DNA of 64,000 nucleotides. Source: Octopus vulgaris (Eukaryota). The position numbers were made by a program, and so were the translations under genes. The stretch covers positions 23,188,001-23,252,000 of the forward strand of contig OX597820.1 of the NCBI GenBank assembly GCA_951406725.2. The letters are read 5' to 3'. Below, in pieces: positions 3,374-59,990 of the stretch (the first letter of the stretch is position 1; each line of letters starts with the position of its first letter). The notes below the pieces were generated by a model. The model made no database searches and was not told where the DNA came from. It saw nothing but the letters and a program-made list of their open reading frames with translations.

Positions 3374-3499
3374 TTATCGGCAATGCTTTGACCTCGAAGG
3401 AGAATCAGGAATTGTCGTTCGTGCTATTGGGACAGCTGTCACATTATCGAAATCCTTAGTGCTATCTACATCTCCCATGGGGCTTTCACCTTTCAAAGA
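3374..3499 (+). CDS. C2CD5: C2CD5 coding exon C
   Basis: tttcAG acceptor and GTAAGT donor. (G)YRQCFDLEGESGIVVRAIGTAVTLSKSLVLSTSPMGLSPFK(D/E) matches C2CD5 YLQCFDLEGESGLVVRAIGTA. Phase 2 to 2. Confidence 0.95.
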
Positions 3500-4199
3500 G
3501 TAAGTTATTTGAACATTTTAAAAACATTATTTGAAATCATATTTAATATTTTTCCTTTATTTTTTTTCACTTTCTATATTCATTAAAAGCAAGTTTTTTT
3601 AAAATCTTTTTGCTAGAAAGTTTGTAGAAGTGGTAATTGGAAGAAAAATTTATTGAAAGAGTAATTAGAATATTTTTTGGACACGAAACACTAAATTTTC
3701 TAGTCAGTTACTTTGATACTCAAATAAACTAGATTTAAAGTTCCCTGAGCTGGAGATTAATCTGTTGTGGTATTTGAATCCTATTTATTGTTTTGGAAAC
3801 TAAATCAAAATTATATCAAAATGTTAATCTTTTCTAAATACTTAAAAACCACTTCAAACCATCTGAGGATACACAATGATAATGATAGAATATCATTTTA
3901 AAATTAATTATTCTAAACATCTTTATGTTCTTCCATACTTTTTTATTTTGTTATTTGTGTAAATAGGATTTTTCCGTTTTGTTAAATAGTTTTCAGTTAA
4001 ATACATTTTTTGTTAACCTTCTATTTTTCATACATTAAAACAGTTAAACAATATCTATTTATGCACAATACAGTGTAAATTTAAAAAAGCTGAAGTAAAT
4101 TCAAATATTGATAAAGCCTCACTGTGAGTTAAATAAGAATGTAAATATATCATTTTTGTACTATTGATTTGTGCCCTCCTTCCCTTTTTTCTGCTCATC

Positions 4200-11904: not shown

Positions 11905-12430
11905 CGGAAATCAGAAACCATGTTGGGTGTCAGTCAGCAAGTCATTTTCTTCAAGGAAGGTGATTAGTTTTCTTCTGACTATTCGTTCCATGACCTTGCT
12001 GATGTGCAAGGTCAAAGAGATAGGTCTGTAGTTTTTGGCCTCTGCTCTACTACCTCTTTTATGAACAGGGTATATTTTACCCTCCTTCAGTTTTCTTAGA
12101 AGTTTGCCAGCTGGAAGGAAGCTCTGAAAGAGGGACTTGCTTACATGCTTTTAGAAGGATTGCTGGGAATCCATCGGGGCCAGTAGCTGAGTTTGAGTTC
12201 ATTTCATCTATAGCCCTTATTACATCGTCTTCCTTTATATTGATGTAATCAATCATCACTGCTTCTGTTTTTTTATCTGCAGTGATAAAAAAGTCAGTTG
12301 GATTGCTGACTTGCAAGTGTCCTAGGGGTGGAGTGAAAATACTTTTGAATTGCTTATTTAGTATTTCACTTATTCTCATTGGGTTTCCTGTTAGTGAACC
12401 ATCTTTTTTGAGGAGTGGCCCTATCCTGCA
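11905..12430 (-). pseudogene. Decayed non-LTR retrotransposon ORF2 fragment (CR1/L2-like, start of the RT region)
   Basis: IGPLLKKDG..ISEILNKQFKSIFT..ATGPDGFPAILLK, then after a frameshift IYPVHKRGSRAEAKNYRPISLT..SKVMERIVRRKLITFLEENDLLTDTQHGF. Confidence 0.9.
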
Positions 12431-12458
12431 GTGCACTGAAGCTGCCTATATGTATGTA

Positions 12459-14390: not shown

Positions 14391-15134
14391 GGGAAAAATG
14401 GTTACCAGGGTGGTAGTTATCAATAAATAGCTGATCTATAAAAAAAGAAAAAGAATGAAGAATATCACAAAATTACTTTAAAAAGATGATGAGAAAAGCC
14501 TCATATTTTATTGATAGTTCCATTCTGTAGAAATATACTATTATTATTATTATTATCATTATTATTATTGTATATTGATTGGTTGACTTGGGAGCTGAAA
14601 TCATTAAGTCTTTCATGTAGAAAGAAACATGACTAGATCAAAAATAGATTTATAAGTTATATCTGATTTTTGCCTATTTAGTCCTCATTAAAGTGTATGC
14701 ATGTGTATATGGGCGTGGGTAATTATGTGTGCTTGTCGGCATGCATAGAAATTTGTGTTTGCTTGTAATCTATCAGTGTAATTTGTGTGTGTGTGTGGGT
14801 GGGTGTATAAATGTGTGTATGCGTTTATGGCTGTGTGTTAGAAACTCATTCTGCAACCTCATGGTTTTGGGTTCAATTCCACTGCATGGCACTTTGGGCA
14901 GATGTCTTCTGTTTCAGTTCTGGGCACACCAAAGCCGTGTGAATGAATTTGGTAGATGAGAACTGTGTGGAAACCTGCCACATACATACATATACGTGTG
15001 TGTGTTCACCCCCACCGCTATTGCTTGACAGCTGGTATTGGTTTGTTTATGTCCTTGTAATTTAGTGGTTCAGCAAAAGAGACTGATAGAATAAGTACCA
15101 GACTTTAAAAAAGCTTAAGTATTAGAGTCAAAAC

Positions 15135-19420: not shown

Positions 19421-19455
19421 AAGATTATATATATATATAGATAGATAGATAGATC

Positions 19456-19700
19456 CAAATATTCCATAATTATAAACATAATTATAATCAGGGGTCAGCT
19501 AATTGTTTTGCCATGCACCAAAATTAGAAATAGGAGTTAAAGTGCCTTTTCTGCTACCATAAAGATCTTCCAGACAGTAACACTGGGAGATCTTTATGGT
19601 AGCAGAAAAGGTATTTTAACTCCTATTTCTAAATCCGGTGCATGGCGAAGCAATTAGCTGACCCCTGATTATAATTATGTTTATAATTATAGAATATTTG
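19456..19700. repeat. Long inverted repeat (~118-bp arms, ~9-nt loop)
   Basis: caaatattccataattataaacataattataatcaggggtcagctaattg... pairs with ...caattagctgacccctgattataattatgtttataattatagaatatttg. Confidence 0.95.
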
Positions 19701-19794
19701 TATAATTTTATCTAAAAAGGTTATTTTAACGTACTGAACTACTTGGTAAAATTATTAATTAATTAATTAATTAATTTTACTCTTTTATTATTAT

Positions 19795-19862
<68 letters not shown>

Positions 19863-19955
19863 ATATAGGGTGGCAAAAAATTTCGTAGAATTTTTTTGCC
19901 ACCAGCGGCCTAGTGGGAAAAAATTAAATAGTCATAGACCATTTATAAATTCAAC

Positions 19956-20081
19956 ATCACAATCAAGGAACGGCCATAATAGGCCATTCACCCACTAGAA
20001 ATAACAGCCAAAGCTTCAACCGGTTGAAGCTTTGGCTGTTATTTCTAGTGGGTGAATGGCCTATTATGGCCGTTCCTGATT

Positions 20082-20086
<5 letters not shown>
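19956..20086. repeat. Near-perfect spacerless palindrome (~65-bp arms)
   Basis: atcacaatcaaggaacggccataataggcc...gcttcaac|cg|gttgaagc...ggcctattatggccgttcctgattgtgat. Confidence 0.95.
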
Positions 20087-20123
<37 letters not shown>

Positions 20124-20270
20124 AAAAGCAATAAAGATTCAAGTTAATTTAAATGAATTTACTTGAATATGGTACCTAACTTAGATGCACCAAAAAAACT
20201 ATACTGATTTAACAATACAGTAATGTGGGGTGATTATAAGCGAGAATGAAGCAACAAGAATGGATAGGTT

Positions 20271-20360
20271 TTTAGTACAATCGTTTCATACAAGGACAGG
20301 TTTTATTAAAAGTTGCAAAAATTACAGCATATAAACGTGTCCCGTACTCATCAGCTAAAA
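20271..20360 (-). ncRNA. Type I hammerhead ribozyme motif (antisense copy)
   Basis: Reverse complement of 22227-22317. Confidence 0.65.
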
Positions 20361-22226
20361 TACATGTGAGTTCTCTAGACATCCTAGTGGTTGAGGCTAT
20401 ACTCATGAAGTAATGTAGATAATTAAGAAACATAAACAGATTTCAAAAGTTCATTAAAGTTCTTTAAAGATGATGTACAGTCTTATCACAGAATTTTAAA
20501 AAAAGTCTTAATAGTATCACAGAGAAGGTGACCTAATCCATAGTTCACATATGAATTTCCAGAGATATGATGAGGGATTACATACTCACAGAAGAAAAAT
20601 TTATCCATTGTTAATTACAACGAGGTGGGTTTCAATTCCTGCTTATTAGCATTACAGAGAGGGTGAATTAATCCTTTGTATAGATGCACAATTTCCAATG
20701 GTGTAGGTGTAAATTTCCAAGGAATTTCATATTCACAGGCGATAAATTTATCAATGGTTGAACACAATGAGGTAGGTATCAATTCTTGCTATATGATTAG
20801 GTATTTGCCACATTAATCACATTACTGCTATTTACAAGAGGCTGTAGCTATTTAACTTTTAAAGGCTGAAGGGCTTACTAGAGCTGTATAGAATAGAAAA
20901 GGGAAGGGCATAGAAGAAAAGAGAGAAAATAAAAGAGGAGGGGGCAAAAAGGGGGGAAGGGGGCTCAAAGAGAAGAGAAAAGGAAAAAGAGGATAAGAAG
21001 AAGAAAAAGAAAAAAGAGAAAAGAGAAAGAAATAGGGAAGGAAGGGAAAAAAGAGAAAAAGAAGAAAAAAGAAAAAAGAAGAAAGAAGAAAGAAAAAGAA
21101 AAAAGGTTCTACTTATACAGAAGAATTGGTAGACGACAAGTCTGGTTTTAATTTACAGGCATCTAGGAATTAGAGGAGAATATTATTCTTTGACCAGTTA
21201 AAACAGCTAATTTATTGCTGTTGGAATCAGCTATGAATTTAAAGAGAATCTAAAGAGATAACACAGTTAGGGGTTTCTGGGTCAGATGCTAAAATCACCA
21301 GAAAATACATTAGGGAAAACTAGGTATAATCTTATCAAAAAGTCATTAAATTTATTCATTTTATTGTCTTAAGGAGTTGCCGTTTTTATTCATACATTGC
21401 CGGACTACAGGTCAAATCTTAGAAGATCATTTAAAAGGTGTTAGGGGATTGTCTATCATAATGAAGATAATCATATTATCACCGAGGGAATAGTCTCATT
21501 TATTTAATTTTGAATTAGAATTATGGGTCTATAGTAACTCATTTTAATTAATTAGAGTTATGCTAATTAAATTAGATTAAGTTAGGAACTAAAATTAAAA
21601 ATTACAATTAAGATTTAAAATTAAGAATTTAAAAATTTAAAAATTGTGAGTTTGAAATTAAATAAAGCCTCAATTAAGCAGCGAATAAGTGCTATTCATT
21701 TCCCTGTTCTCAAAAAACTGATGCAGATATAAGGAAAAAGATAACTGTAGTGTGAGAACTCTTAGTTATCTACTTAAAGCAGTGCTATACCAGTAGAAAT
21801 CAGGTTATATCTATCTATCTAGTTACGAAAATTCTAATCATTTAAAATATTTTAAAGTCTTCAATTTAGCGTGGACACAAACTTGACCTAGTTCGATATG
21901 GTTATTCAATAGGTTTCTATGTTTTCTATGCTTTAGAATTTCATACACCTCGTTGTAATTAACCTCGTTGTAATTAACAATGGATAAATTTTTCTTCTGT
22001 GAGTATGTAATCCCTCATCATATCTCTGGAAATTCATATGTGAACTATGGATTAGGTCACCTTCTCTGTGATACTATTAAGACTTTTTTAAAATTCTGTG
22101 ATAAGACTGTACATCATCTTTAAAGAACTTTAATGAACTTTTGAAATCTGTTTATGTTACTTAATTATCTACATTACTTCATGAGTATAGCCTCAACCAC
22201 TAGGATGTCTAGAGAACTCACATGTA

Positions 22227-22317
22227 TTTTAGCTGATGAGTACGGGACACGTTTATATGCTGTAATTTTTGCAACTTTTAATAAAACCTGTCCTTGTATG
22301 AAACGATTGTACTAAAA
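22227..22317 (+). ncRNA. Type I hammerhead ribozyme motif with long loop 2
   Basis: ttttag-CTGATGA-gtacgggaca...tgtccttgtat-GAAA-cgatt-GTA-ctaaaa. Stem I is ttttag/ctaaaa; predicted cleavage after 22311. Confidence 0.7.
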
Positions 22318-22345
22318 ACCTATCCATTCTTGTTGCTTCATTCTC

Positions 22346-22407
<62 letters not shown>

Positions 22408-22986
22408 TAGCTTCATGCATACATGCACACACACACACATGTAGATGCAGAAGTGTGTGTGTGGTAGAGAAGATTGCTTCCCAGCCATGTGGTTTCGTGT
22501 TCGGCCCTACTAAACAGCACCTTGGCCAGTATCTTCTACTATAGCACTGGGTCAACTAAAGCCTTCTGGGTGGATTTGGTGAAGGGAATTTGAAATAGCT
22601 CTCTCTTTTATTTATACGTATGTATGCATGTATGTACTTACTTTTGTCTTGAGCCCAGCTGATGATTGTAAATGTGTAAATGAGTATCACTGTTACATAA
22701 GTGATGCTGCTCAATTCTAGTCTTCCATGAAAGACCTGTCTGACTATGAGAGAAATATTACTTTGCTTGGAAAAGGTGAGCGTTGGCAACAGGAAGGGTA
22801 CCTGTTGAAAATCTACATCAAATTCTGTCCAACCTATGCAAGAATTATAAACTGGACATTAAATGATGACACACACACACATGCACATATATATAATGAT
22901 GGTTCCATGATGGTAGGATCAACAAAAAAAAAAGGTACTCTATCAGGTGAGAGGTAAATATTTAATAGACACAATACATGTTTTTA

Positions 22987-23043
22987 TGTGCTATTAATAG
23001 TTTCATATGTTGAGAAGTACCTCAAGCATATTCATCAGGCACA
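22987..23043 (-). ncRNA. Type I hammerhead ribozyme motif (antisense copy, AUA triplet)
   Basis: Minus strand reads tgtgc-CTGATGA-atatgcttgaggtacttctcaacatat-GAAA-ctatta-ATA-gcaca. Confidence 0.6.
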
Positions 23044-23078
23044 AACTAACTAAAAATAGTTCCTTACGATATGCGGTC

Positions 23079-23135
23079 TGTGCCTGATGAATATATTTGA
23101 GGCGCTTCTCAACATATGAAACTATTAGTAGCACA
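23079..23135 (+). ncRNA. Type I hammerhead ribozyme motif
   Basis: tgtgc-CTGATGA-atatatttgag(gcgctt)ctcaacatat-GAAA-ctatta-GTA-gcaca. Stems I, II and short III are all formable; predicted cleavage after 23130. Confidence 0.8.
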
Positions 23136-23910
23136 TAAAAACATGTATTGTGTCTATTAAATAATTAACACACACGCACACACACACACATACATACATG
23201 GATGAACAAATGAAGTTTGCGATGCAGTTTTCTGCATGGGACTGTTGGCGCTCAATACTGCAAGCTAACAAACACACACATATACATACGATTTCCACTA
23301 TTCACAGTGGCAAACTGTATGTTTCCCTCTTCCTTCAATTTACATTTTTGTTTTTACTGTTAAGTGGAATGAGACTTCTAGATTTAAATGTATTTCTTTG
23401 CGATAAAGTGTGTTGCTGGTGAAGGTATAGCAGCCGTGGTTTCTTCATGAAACTAGCAATGCTGCATTTCTGATGCCTTAGAAGAATGTTAGACTTTGTA
23501 TGGTAGCTAAGAGCTTCAGGTTTATGTCCAACCTGTAACACCATACTTTCTAATATTCCCGTCTAACCATGACCTCTAGTTTTTATGGGATTAGTTCTAC
23601 CAGAGCCGTCATTTATCTTCATTAAGAAGCATGTGGGCTTCACTATATAACAGTGAAATCAGGAGTTTATTGCAATTTTAATGTTATTGGCAGGCAGTTG
23701 GTTTCTACAGTCCTATAGATATAATATATTACAAAACATGTTTTTATTAATACAGCAGTGGTTGCGTGCTTAGCCAGCAAAATCTGCAATCCAAGTTTGT
23801 TTCACTGTTTCAAGGACTGTTTATTCTGCTTATGTCCAATGTAATGATAAGCATCAATGCTTCCTCTCTATCCATCTCTCTCTCTCTCTATCTATCTATC
23901 TATATATATG

Positions 23911-24707: not shown

Positions 24708-25353
24708 CTAGGGTGGAGTGAAAATAAAAAAATTGTGGTAATTGAAAATGTCTGAGGACTAAAATGTTGTTATATTTGACTAGAAAAATGCTAAATTTTA
24801 GCTGAGATCCCTCAAGCCCTACAGACTCCAAAAATGGGAGATTTTTGTAAATTTTTTTACAATAGTGGAGTTTGGCGTTGTTTGAGGGAGTAAATGCCAT
24901 TGACTGATATTTACAAAAATTTAGCATTTTTCTAGTAATAATAAGCAAGATATAGCATTTTCAAGTGTTTATTTTCACTCCACCATAACACACATGTATA
25001 TGTGTACAGGTATATAGATTGTATAATCAATCTAGAGTGGAGTGAAAATAAAAAACTGTGGAAATTGAAAATGCCTGAGGCCTAAAATCTTGCTATATAA
25101 TATTGCTCGAAAAATGCAAAATTTTCGCTTTGATCAGTCTAGGGCATTTACTCCCTCCTCCTCCTCCCCAACTCCACTATTGTATAAAGTTTAGGAAAAT
25201 CCTTCATTTTCGGAGTTTAGAGGACTTGAGGGAGTAAATAACCTTGAATGATCTCAGCAAAAATTTAGCATTTTTCTAATAATCAAATATAGCAACATTT
25301 TAGCCCTCAGACATTTTCGATTTCTGCAATTTTTTATTTTCACTCCACCCTAG
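24708..25353. mobile_element. Dimeric foldback MITE (two TIR-bounded units plus spacer)
   Basis: Each unit is bounded by ggtggagtgaaaata.../...tttcactccacc. Overall ends are ctagggtggagtg and cactccaccctag. Confidence 0.8.
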
Positions 25354-34402: not shown

Positions 34403-35066
34403 GTAGAGTGGAGTGAAAATTAAAAATTGTGGAAATTGAAAATGCCTGAGGGCTAAAATGTTGCTATATTTGATTACTAGAAAAATGCTAAATTTACATT
34501 GAGATCAATCAAGGGCATTTACTCCCTCAAGCTCTCTAATCTCCAAAAATTGGGATTTTTTAAAAATTGTTTTACGATAGTGGAGTTTGGGTGTTTTGAG
34601 GGAATAAATACCCTTGACTGGTCTATGCGAAAATTTAGCATTTTTCTAGTAATAATATATAGCAAGATTTTAGGCCTCAGGCATTTTCGATTTCCACAAT
34701 TTTTTATTTCTACTCCACCTTAAATTACACAATCTGTATACCCACACACACATACATGTGTGTTAGGGTGTAGTGAAAATGAAAAATTGAAAATGCCTGA
34801 GACCTAAAATCTTGCTATATATTATTACTAGAAAAATGCTAAATTTTCGCTTAGATCAGTCAAAGGCATTTACTCCCTCAACCCCACAAACTCTGCTATT
34901 GTAAAGAATTTACAAGCATTCCCCATTTTTGGAGTTTGTGGGGCTTGAGGGAGTAAATACCCTTGTTTGATCTCAGCGAAAATTTAGCATTTTTCTAGTA
35001 TATAGCAACATTTTAGCACTCAGACATTTCCAATTTCCACAATTTTTTTATTTCCACTCCACCCTA
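34403..35066. mobile_element. Second copy of the dimeric foldback MITE, opposite orientation
   Basis: Spacer attacacaatctgtatacccacacacacatacatgtgtgtta is close to the reverse complement of the spacer at ~24985-25028. Confidence 0.8.
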
Positions 35067-38730: not shown

Positions 38731-39225
38731 TTTCTCCTTTTGTGTTCTAACTGCAAATCTTGGTGGATGGGGGGGGGGCTCTCTAGAAGGTAATCATAAT
38801 GAAGTTCTGAGGTAAATTTAATCAACTGATCTGTCCCCAAATTTGTGGCTTTGTAACCAAATATTAAAAAAAAAAAAAATTCAATAACCCAAGGTAGGTA
38901 GCATTTATCTTGTGTTTATTTTTGTTTTTTTTTCCATTCTTTTTTATTTCATTTTTTTTTTTCTTTTTTTTTAAACCTTGTTGCATTTTTTATTACATTA
39001 AACGAACATTATTTTTTTCCTTTGTTTATTCCTTTAGCAGTCTAAAGGCTTCTGGAAGAAGGCCCACCCCACCATATACCGTGCTGTAGTGTCCCGTAAA
39101 TCCAAACCTGCGTTAGTAAATGACCATTCTGTAATCAGTTTCCACAGCCTTCTCTCACCTTCTTCTTCGTTAATTTTCTTAATTACTACTATGGCGTTTC
39201 TTGTTTTTTCTCTCTTCTGTTGCAG

Positions 39226-40127
39226 TAAACGGCATGTGAAATTTCAGTCACCTGCTACCTCATCTCCTAGGCGTGCAGTACTGATGCAGTCTACACCACC
39301 TGCATCTACATCCACTACGAGTCTTACGGCTAACAATAACACTACTGTCTCTACTAACACTAGTACCACTACAACTACAACTATTGCTACTACTGCTACT
39401 ACTACTATTTCTACCACTACCACTACTACAACTGCTGTCTCTTCTACCTGCCCGCCTTCCCCTCCTTCTCCACCACCGCCTCCCCCACTCCCTCCACCTC
39501 CACTGCCTTTGCCCCCTCCGCCGTCTTCTTCTCTACCTCCTCCGCCATCCCCTTCGAACCTACCACCTCTCCCTCCCCCTCCGTTGCCTCCACCGCCGGC
39601 AGACTTCTCCAACGAATCCGAACCCGACACCGAGTCCGAGTCCACTTCTCTCGCCCCGCTCTTGCCTCCGCCTCCGCCTCTTCCCCCTCCTCCACCGCCG
39701 CCCCTCCCGCCTCCGCCTCTGCCTTCCCAACACCCCAAGCTGTCCCACTTTCACCACCAACAGCAACACCTCCTCCACCACCACCACCACCACCATCACC
39801 ATCATCATCACTACCAGCAGCACTCGTCAGTGGACCGAGATCGGGACAGGCCAATGTCTCCGCTTGCCCAACCTCGATCACAGCACGCGTCTCCATGCTC
39901 CACCCCTCCCGTGGTAGCAACTTGCCACAGACACACAGAACAAGAACCAGACAACTCAATATTTACCTTCCCTTGCAGCTCTCCTCTTCCCGAAGACATC
40001 ATCACTCCCTCCTCCCCGACCATTAACCAGTCTGGTGGCCTCAAATCGTCCACGTCACCTGCTAAATGCTCCAGTACAGCTATCCGACGCCGGTCTTCAG
40101 ACTCAGACTTGAGTACCACTCCAAAAG
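39226..40127 (+). CDS. C2CD5: C2CD5 exon D, long form (poly-Thr/poly-Pro/poly-His linker)
   Basis: Polypyrimidine tract plus tgcAG (39224-39225), phase 2 compatible with exon C. The frame is open to donor AAG|GTAATA at 40128 and ends RRRSSDSDLSTTPK(G), matching C2CD5 RQSSSSDTDLSLTPK. Confidence 0.65.
39979..40127 (+). CDS. C2CD5: C2CD5 exon D, short (probably ancestral) form
   Basis: Acceptor atttaccttcccttgcAG (39977-39978), phase 2. (D)SPLPEDIITPSSPTINQSGGLKSSTSPAKCSSTAIRRRSSDSDLSTTPK(G) is similar in length and end motif to the vertebrate segment IPFNED...SSSSDTDLSLTPK. Confidence 0.85.
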
Positions 40128-40420
40128 GTAATAATAATAATGCAATAATCACAAATATGAATCACTCTAATACGTATTAACCCTTGAAAAGCAAAAAAAA
40201 AAAAAAAAAAAAAATTATGAGGAAAAGACTAAACAAGGAAGAAATGAGATTTTCTTTTTTTTTTTCTTTTGGCTAATTTAACCAAACCATTTGATCACAT
40301 TTGTTTTAATTTTTGCTTCTTTTTTCCTCAATATTAATAATGATGGTTTCTTTTGTTGGTCACAAGGGTTTTACTGTTACTACTATTATTAGTACTGCTA
40401 CTAATAATAACAATAGTAAT

Positions 40421-54025: not shown

Positions 54026-54868
54026 TCACATACACATCATGTTTGATGGCATGTAAGACGCACTTCATTTTTCCAAGAAATGTCTAAGAAAAATTATTCT
54101 CTGTGCAAAGTTGAGCTTCCCATAAACTAATATTACATACTTTAATGTACTACAAACTTTTCTCTTGAATATGCACTTTGGAAACTGAAGTCCATCTAAC
54201 TATGTCCATGTGTCTTTTATGCCATCAAATAATACACACACACACACACAAAAGTGTTATGCTGTTTCTTTTACACACACACACACACACGTGTGTGTGT
54301 GAAACAGCATGACACTTCTCTATGAGCAAAGCAAATATGTATTGCTTGAAGGCCTATGGCCGAGTAACCCCATTGTCTCATAGTAGTTGTCTTCAATTGC
54401 TCTCTATCCTGTCCTCCTCAGCTACTCTATTCTAGCTATAATCAATTAACAAAGAAACAAAAGGTAATTTTCTTACCTTTTTTTTTCTTCCTGTTTACAT
54501 TTTCATGATTTCTTTTGACAATGAATTGTGAAAAACGGTGTGCTCTGAGATAGCCTGATAGCATTCAAAAGCTTTCAATGTAGTTATGATGTTCTCTCTA
54601 AATGCAATTTTCATTTACACCTTTAGTTCTTCTTTTTTGAATTTTTTTTTTTTAAATTTCACTTTCGCCACCATTTCCTTCTCCCACAATCTCTTATACT
54701 AAAATATTAAGTACCATATAAAAAAAAAACTAAACTAAACATCCCAAAACATCAATCCTGTGCTTCATAGGCAAATACAGCTGAAGACCGCAATTTTACC
54801 TCCCATCCTTCCAAGGGTGATGAATATGTATATTTATATATATATACATATACATATTCATCACCTTG

Positions 54869-54901
<33 letters not shown>

Positions 54902-59842: not shown

Positions 59843-59964
59843 GGGGTAGTCTGACAGGAAGCAGTGGGAGTGGGAGTGGAACTGGAGTCCTGAGTGGAAT
59901 TTCTGGGAGAGCGGCAGGACACAAACCAGGGATGCCGCAACAACAGCCAACCATTGACATGTTG
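59843..59964 (+). CDS. C2CD5: C2CD5 coding exon E (Gly/Ser-rich)
   Basis: ctcgcAG acceptor and TTG|GTAAGC donor. (G)GSLTGSSGSGSGTGVLSGISGRAAGHKPGMPQQQPTIDML, phase 1 to 0. Positionally equivalent to the GSGS..QQ segment before the conserved E(F/Y)PF block, which was not found in this window. Confidence 0.85.
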
Positions 59965-59990
59965 GTAAGCCCTGCTGTTTTTTGTCTTTT

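Follow-up and report, generated by a model that had tools for sequence, protein, structure and literature searches.

A probable head-to-head Hydra-clade Penelope-like remnant with a minimal hammerhead motif in an intron of Octopus vulgaris C2CD5

Within the window (the 64,000-nt stretch of Octopus vulgaris DNA that we analyzed), an inverted repeat bearing a hammerhead motif belongs to a 269-bp insertion at 22897-23165, which is very probably what remains of a Hydra-clade Penelope-like element (PLE) inserted in head-to-head form and likely neutral scrap in an intron of C2CD5. The insertion is 5′-truncated and consists, in order, of a tail, a left pseudo-LTR (pLTR) end, a junction and a right pLTR end.

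Results

The host intron and the organization of the unit

All of the C2CD5 exons located by tblastn with P0001 and P0002 are on the plus strand (255-425, 1046 to about 1120, 3375-3500, 39980-40132, and 59860-59973). The motif is enclosed by an intron bounded by the consecutive exons 3375-3500 and 39980-40132 (3500-39978, plus strand, 36.5 kb, with GT at 3500 and AG ending at 39978), which falls between residues 263 and 264 of P0002. This agrees with the preliminary description of the DNA, made from its letters alone, which had placed the motif on the sense strand of a C2CD5 intron. The upstream exon, 3375-3500, has 98% identity to octopod C2CD5 proteins and matches Pfam YbjQ_2 with an E-value of 1.3e-5, which is below the curated cut-off. 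At the other side of the intron, an open frame of 380 codons with many Pro, Thr, and His residues (39038-40177, plus strand) ends in exon 39980-40132; its upstream part is absent from both P0001 and P0002 and could represent an extended alternative exon.

The tail, 62 nt in length and one-sided (22897-22958, minus strand), carries the left arm on beyond the short end that is characteristic of the family. The left arm itself (22959-23046, minus strand) is a pLTR end with a damaged hammerhead whose core starts at 23038, and the right arm (23076-23165, plus strand) is a pLTR end that stops at the short end. Between them is a loop (23047-23075) that holds the inversion junction, near 23057, where the truncated 5′ ends meet; each side of the loop matches the family 3′ UTR, in opposite orientations. 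The inverted repeat (22959-23046/23076-23163) measures 88 bp, in line with the ~87 bp first given for it with the ribozyme as its right arm, and has six non-Watson-Crick positions, three of which are G-U wobbles on the plus-strand transcript. Although the arms had been correctly placed, the earlier extent of 22959-23163 missed the 62-nt tail, and the limits of the unit are 22897 and 23165. Similarly, the left arm is antisense, as had been described, but it is not an exact copy: a G16.2 to A change at 22994 makes its ribozyme read AUA, with the loss of one stem III pair. Each arm differs from the family majority letters at 4 of 87 positions. Family copies recurrently stop at two points, to which the two ends of the unit correspond, and the setting of the unit is a TA/CA microsatellite, in which no clear target-site duplication of the unit was found (the best candidate, 27 nt with 5 mismatches, is within the microsatellite). 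In most copies the tail (22897-22958, minus strand, in the window) contains a stretch of pyrimidines that closes with CAG directly ahead of an ATG, resembling a 3′ splice site, and PLEs have been reported to carry introns in their 5′ UTRs.

The hammerhead motif

The right arm contains the minimal type I hammerhead motif (23079-23135, plus strand), and every part of the complete motif reported at this position was recovered, using the standard hammerhead residue numbering: stem I (23079-23083/23131-23135), the core from C3 at 23084 to A9 at 23090, stem II (23091-23117), G12-A14 (23118-23120), and a palindromic stem III with a 3-nt loop (23121-23129), all on the plus strand. The core letters CUGANGA, GAAA, and NUH are present together with stems I and II, and the predicted cut is after A23130 (23130/23131, plus strand). 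The motif matches a strict descriptor that had three matches in the window, compared with an average of 0.02 over 200 resampled windows of matched composition. Two departures were seen in this hammerhead, an A-C mismatch in stem II and an A-U at pair 10.1-11.1, where G-C is usual (though not universal); the A-U is found in 40 of the 42 aligned family copies. Stem III is suited to a dimer, as energy prediction gave +2.1 kcal/mol for the hairpin alone and -4.9 kcal/mol for the self-duplex.

Across the family alignment 88% of the stem cells are paired and 5 of 18 pairs show changes on both sides, with 112 of 500 shuffles equally high, and covariation support within the ribozyme family is weak. 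The first core box is kept in 67 of 78 copies, with U at position 7 in 58 of these and A in nine. The copies of one subfamily (L067, L071, L073, L077, and L079-L083) have A at position 7 and two bases fewer in loop II, and in a few copies of this set a C-G pair replaces U-A in stem I.

The check suggested in the preliminary description, an Rfam covariance search, gave no match to a hammerhead family, either at the gathering score over the whole window or at E-values up to 10 over 22700-23400, where none of the 10 matches was a hammerhead; the sub-gathering miRNA matches in that interval were rejected as reflecting the long hairpin. Model R1 had further matches in the window at 54807-54873 (E 0.09) and 14499-14540 (E 0.69), the first of which we rejected as a hammerhead since it is a microsatellite hairpin without a core.

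Assignment of the family to the Hydra clade

A genome search with the right arm returned 1405 first-look candidates, and among the 40 that were scored the other copies were 84-94% identical. The proposed count of genomic copies therefore revealed many, and the motif is not unique. Family copies have a common fixed 3′ region and differ in their 5′ reach, and they terminate either at the short end or about 60 nt beyond it, after the tail. By eye, most of the ends adjoin TA or CA runs, which fits the (TA)n preference of the Hydra clade. Copies average 89% identity to the family majority letters. The longer ones continue 5′ into a decayed reading frame, and a genome search with one piece of this remnant frame gave at least 150 scored matches. 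The ribozyme was found behind a PLE thumb/endonuclease remnant, on the same strand, in 16 of 20 loci (these loci were picked on protein), upholding the original attribution of the hammerhead to a Penelope pLTR.

The remnant frame matches seven proteins with a reverse transcriptase (RT) and GIY-YIG (best E-value 3e-38). Four homologs considered in full are 625-715 residues long, and have the motifs YRDD (4/4), DKT (4/4), and RWK (3/4). Translations of the family's own frame (L013, L018, and L071) contain a CxCX5C linker, and CxxC and CxH around conserved E and N residues. The CxCX5C linker, CxxC, CxH, YRDD, RWK, and DKT are listed as Hydra-clade features in section 11 of PMC8557442, whose File S1 includes an octopus element, Hydra-1_Obim, with its ribozyme in File S2. 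From these sequence features we infer that the family is a Hydra-clade PLE. The Neptune clade was dropped as an assignment because the linker is CxCX5C and the homologs carry RWK/DKT. RWK and DKT were seen in the homologs only, as what was found of the family's own frame was limited to residues matching about 329-696 of P0121, and neither its RT core nor its N-terminus was recovered. An N-terminal genome search returned other, younger families, and none of its 25 loci had this ribozyme; nor was a full-length or direct tandem pLTR-ORF-pLTR parent present among the loci examined. In Pfam the remnants had no significant match to any family, and one of six homologs matched GIY-YIG weakly (E 0.021). 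A protein search with L018:905-1243 among longer proteins scored none of 35 candidates, and the search among representatives had 2727 unnamed matches.

Head-to-head pairs in this and a neighboring family

Using an exact pattern on the ribozyme core, we picked 28 core-intact copies, 13 of which (the window's included) have a divergent inverted partner within 1.5 kb. None has a convergent partner and 14 are solo; the remaining one, the sole case that appeared direct, is one copy into which an insertion has gone. The tail is on exactly one arm in all eight pairs of the first locus set, and the spacer between arms ranges from -2 to 1179 nt in 22 distinct pairs (repeated rows merged). Among 17 copies not picked on the ribozyme, eight have an intact core. 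Published accounts describe pairs of minimal hammerheads on opposite strands, 100-700 bp apart (PMC4209133), and an inverted truncated copy with a one-sided tail (PMC8557442, PMC3846280), and PMC3846280 gives head-to-head as the commonest arrangement. The window hairpin is the usual insertion product of its family and is not special, and as such architecture is already published, the unit is one more stub of a described kind.

The same intron contains a young Hydra-clade element of another family with the same head-to-head form (20122-22346), located 550 bp upstream of the hairpin unit. Its hammerhead motifs (20272-20358, minus strand, and 22229-22315, plus strand) have a long loop II, its arms are 99% complementary, and its tail is about 113 nt. 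The 40 scored candidates of this family have 99-100% identity, and of 19 other copies, 12 are paired with an inverted one, the junction point varying among them. In two of them (L113 and L115) the inverted arm continues into the start of a Hydra-type ORF.

A second locus with the same junction

A 28-nt pattern of the junction, allowing up to 3 mismatches, had two matches in the genome, one in the window and one at G000:C7:20642427-20642454, and none in the control. The second locus (G000:C7:20.64 Mb) is 2.6 Mb from the window unit on the same chromosome. The tailed arms of the two loci have in common a 5-nt deletion that is present in none of 76 other copies, and two substitutions that are present in three and five of these; their short arms have four common substitutions, present in 7, 1, 4, and 11 of the 76. 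(Three rows, two mis-anchored and one duplicate, were left out before counting.) In each set there is one variant that one locus carries in its opposite arm as well. Both ends of each locus are the ends of the element, and the flanks of the two are no more alike than controls over 300 bp and have only common repeats over 10 kb; segmental duplication was rejected, as the flanks are unrelated. The genome pattern search found no third copy or master with this junction, and at C7:20.64 Mb no target-site duplication was clear, the best candidate being 17 nt with 2 mismatches in the microsatellite. In a separate observation, stem III of the tailed arm at this locus (L031, G000:C7:20640927-20643950) is interrupted by a repeat of ~330 bp, and a short duplication marks the break.

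Because the same junction and arm-specific variants are found within unrelated flanks, the joined hairpin was duplicated as a unit on at least one occasion, likely by the element's RT/endonuclease. With two copies, the source could be either a hairpin parent or a full-length master whose 5′ end is inverted.

Discussion

Is the hairpin itself mobile?

The preliminary description had suggested that the hairpin could be a tiny retrozyme-like mobile unit. The retrozyme element of this suggestion fails, and a non-LTR retrozyme was rejected, as there are no direct tandem units each with a hammerhead; the existence of the unit at two unrelated sites gives the idea of a tiny mobile unit some support. 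Stated in full, the hairpin would be a non-autonomous, MITE-like palindromic PLE derivative whose 269 bp are copied end to end by a Hydra enzyme acting in trans. Transcripts of either strand would carry a sense pLTR end, and one locus would be the parent of the other, or both would stem from a lost hairpin. We regard this as a tentative proposal that is rather doubtful, and it would supplement the head-to-head remnant explanation, not replace it. The junction, the 5-nt deletion, and the arm-specific variants common to two unrelated sites argue for it, as does the coincidence of both ends of the unit with the element's ends. However, there are only two copies, both could descend from one full-length master whose 5′ pLTR is inverted (the arrangement in L113 and L115, and one described in PMC3846280), and as both are on one chromosome, a DNA-level copy with its ends hidden in microsatellite is possible. 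Our literature search on palindromic non-autonomous Penelope elements produced no fitting title.

Formation of the unit

As a head-to-head remnant, the unit probably formed as follows. The element's RT/endonuclease would cut a TA/CA microsatellite, reverse transcription would start at two fixed internal sites, corresponding to the short end and the tail end, and both cDNA products would stop early and be joined at their truncated ends. There is precedent in the anole PLE, whose protein was shown in vitro to cut both strands of AT-rich DNA and to begin reverse transcription from two internal positions, which bound the tail (PMC11167929).

Pairing of the arms and tolerance in the intron

Pairing of the arms in the C2CD5 pre-mRNA is predicted to yield an 88-bp duplex incompatible with the ribozyme fold. 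By energy prediction, the penalty for imposing the monomeric hammerhead fold is 7.3 kcal/mol in the arm alone, 58.0 kcal/mol when the antisense arm precedes it, and 69.7 kcal/mol in the whole unit. The prediction is thus on the side of the antisense arm sequestering the ribozyme, as had been proposed (58 versus 7.3 kcal/mol), but that the antisense arm is transcribed first simply follows from the geometry on either strand, and the minus-strand transcript is predicted to form the same hairpin. Pairing of the arms would be a by-product of this geometry and is probably unnecessary, because minimal PLE hammerheads are described as lacking monomer cleavage in vitro (PMC4209133), while the anole PLE hammerhead is reported to need its protein to cleave (PMC11167929). 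The ribozyme would be nearly silent anyway, since its 3-bp stem III is predicted to be unstable and a second sense copy would be needed; as an inverted pair provides one sense copy per strand, there is no dimer partner inside the unit.

These considerations bear on the proposal that the antisense arm locks the sense ribozyme and makes it tolerable, selection having kept paired sense copies and removed unpaired ones, which we consider improbable. The predicted exclusion of the hammerhead fold by 58-70 kcal/mol is consistent with a lock, both of the sense-strand hammerhead motifs found in the window have an upstream antisense copy, and tandem retrozymes are described as depleted in Xenopus introns (bioRxiv 10.64898/2026.07.22.740005). 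Against this, pairing is found in about half of all copies irrespective of their location, which makes two of two unsurprising; the isolated arm is itself predicted to misfold, by 7.3 kcal/mol; and there is the published inactivity of single minimal hammerheads. With head-to-head pairs routine (13/28, none convergent) and monomers inactive in vitro by the account in PMC4209133, the lock is not supported as the reason that the hairpin arose or is retained, or that the motif is tolerated in an intron. Retention of the core in the window copy can be explained, on sequence grounds, by a neutral remnant without selection, given the 4 of 87 differences per arm and the intact core of 8 of 17 unpicked copies; a counterpoint to full neutrality is that the sense arm kept its core and the other arm lost one stem III pair.

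RNA editing is extensive in coleoids, and an intronic duplex of 88 bp, as predicted here, would be a typical ADAR substrate. Nevertheless, it is scarcely credible that the hairpin acts as a regulatory switch in which A-to-I editing unpairs the duplex and releases a ribozyme able to cut C2CD5 pre-mRNA, as the 58-70 kcal/mol gap would need many edits, which would probably hit core adenosines too, a dimer partner would still be required, and the window copy has no sign of selection. Our literature search on an editing-gated intronic hammerhead produced no fitting title. Contig pieces over the hairpin (four runs, none spanning the stretch) carry the variants of other copies, and their few A>G differences are uninformative on editing.

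Relationship to known systems

Among known systems, Hydra-1_Obim of Octopus bimaculoides resembles the window family in its C-terminal endonuclease with a CxCX5C linker and its (TA)n targets, and its ribozyme, like that of the window, is near the 3′ end, with a palindromic stem III (a palindrome of 4 bp with a 1-nt loop in File S2) and an A-U opening stem II (PMC8557442). The window family differs from it in its ribozyme letters (by comparison with File S2), is older and decayed, and no full-length copy of it was found. The inverted-pLTR units of Adineta vaga Pen2a (PMC3846280; PMC8557442, Fig. 2 legend) are likewise head-to-head with a tail on one end, whereas the window unit has no ORF or direct pLTR between its arms. 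The family's tail of about 60 nt exceeds the 30-40 nt given for published PLE tails. The minimal metazoan PLE hammerheads of PMC4209133 also have a short stem I, a long stem II, a palindromic stem III, and opposite-strand pairs; in the window, A-U replaces their conserved G10.1-C11.1, and the two cores, 35 nt apart, are closer than the 100-700 bp described there. Non-LTR retrozymes, as described in bioRxiv 10.64898/2026.07.22.740005, are non-coding, derived from PLEs, and carry a type I hammerhead, but they are direct tandem repeats with a ribozyme per unit, in contrast to the one inverted pair of the window with one sense ribozyme per strand.

By itself the window locus, one of many stubs, has little significance. 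Two loci with one junction show that copying of a joined PLE hairpin as a whole can occur, a finding relevant to how head-to-head PLE insertions form. The young Hydra families, whose copies are near-identical and include many open frames, make this genome a good system for the study of PLE integration, and they steadily supply intronic double-stranded RNA in a group of animals noted for editing. In a third Hydra-type family (e.g., L085, C8:62063324-62066740), a 727-residue stop-free frame is present in 45 of the 150 matches listed, which suggests recent or ongoing activity of that family.

Other repeats were noted in the window. Two more near-perfect hairpins, at 19442-19714 and 19954-20086, lie next to the elements and lack hammerhead cores, and related inverted-repeat elements, MITE-like and also without a hammerhead core, are at 25032-25353, 34408-34718, and 24764-24951. 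Fragments at 11914-12445 (minus strand) resemble what we take to be the reverse transcriptase region of a non-LTR retrotransposon.
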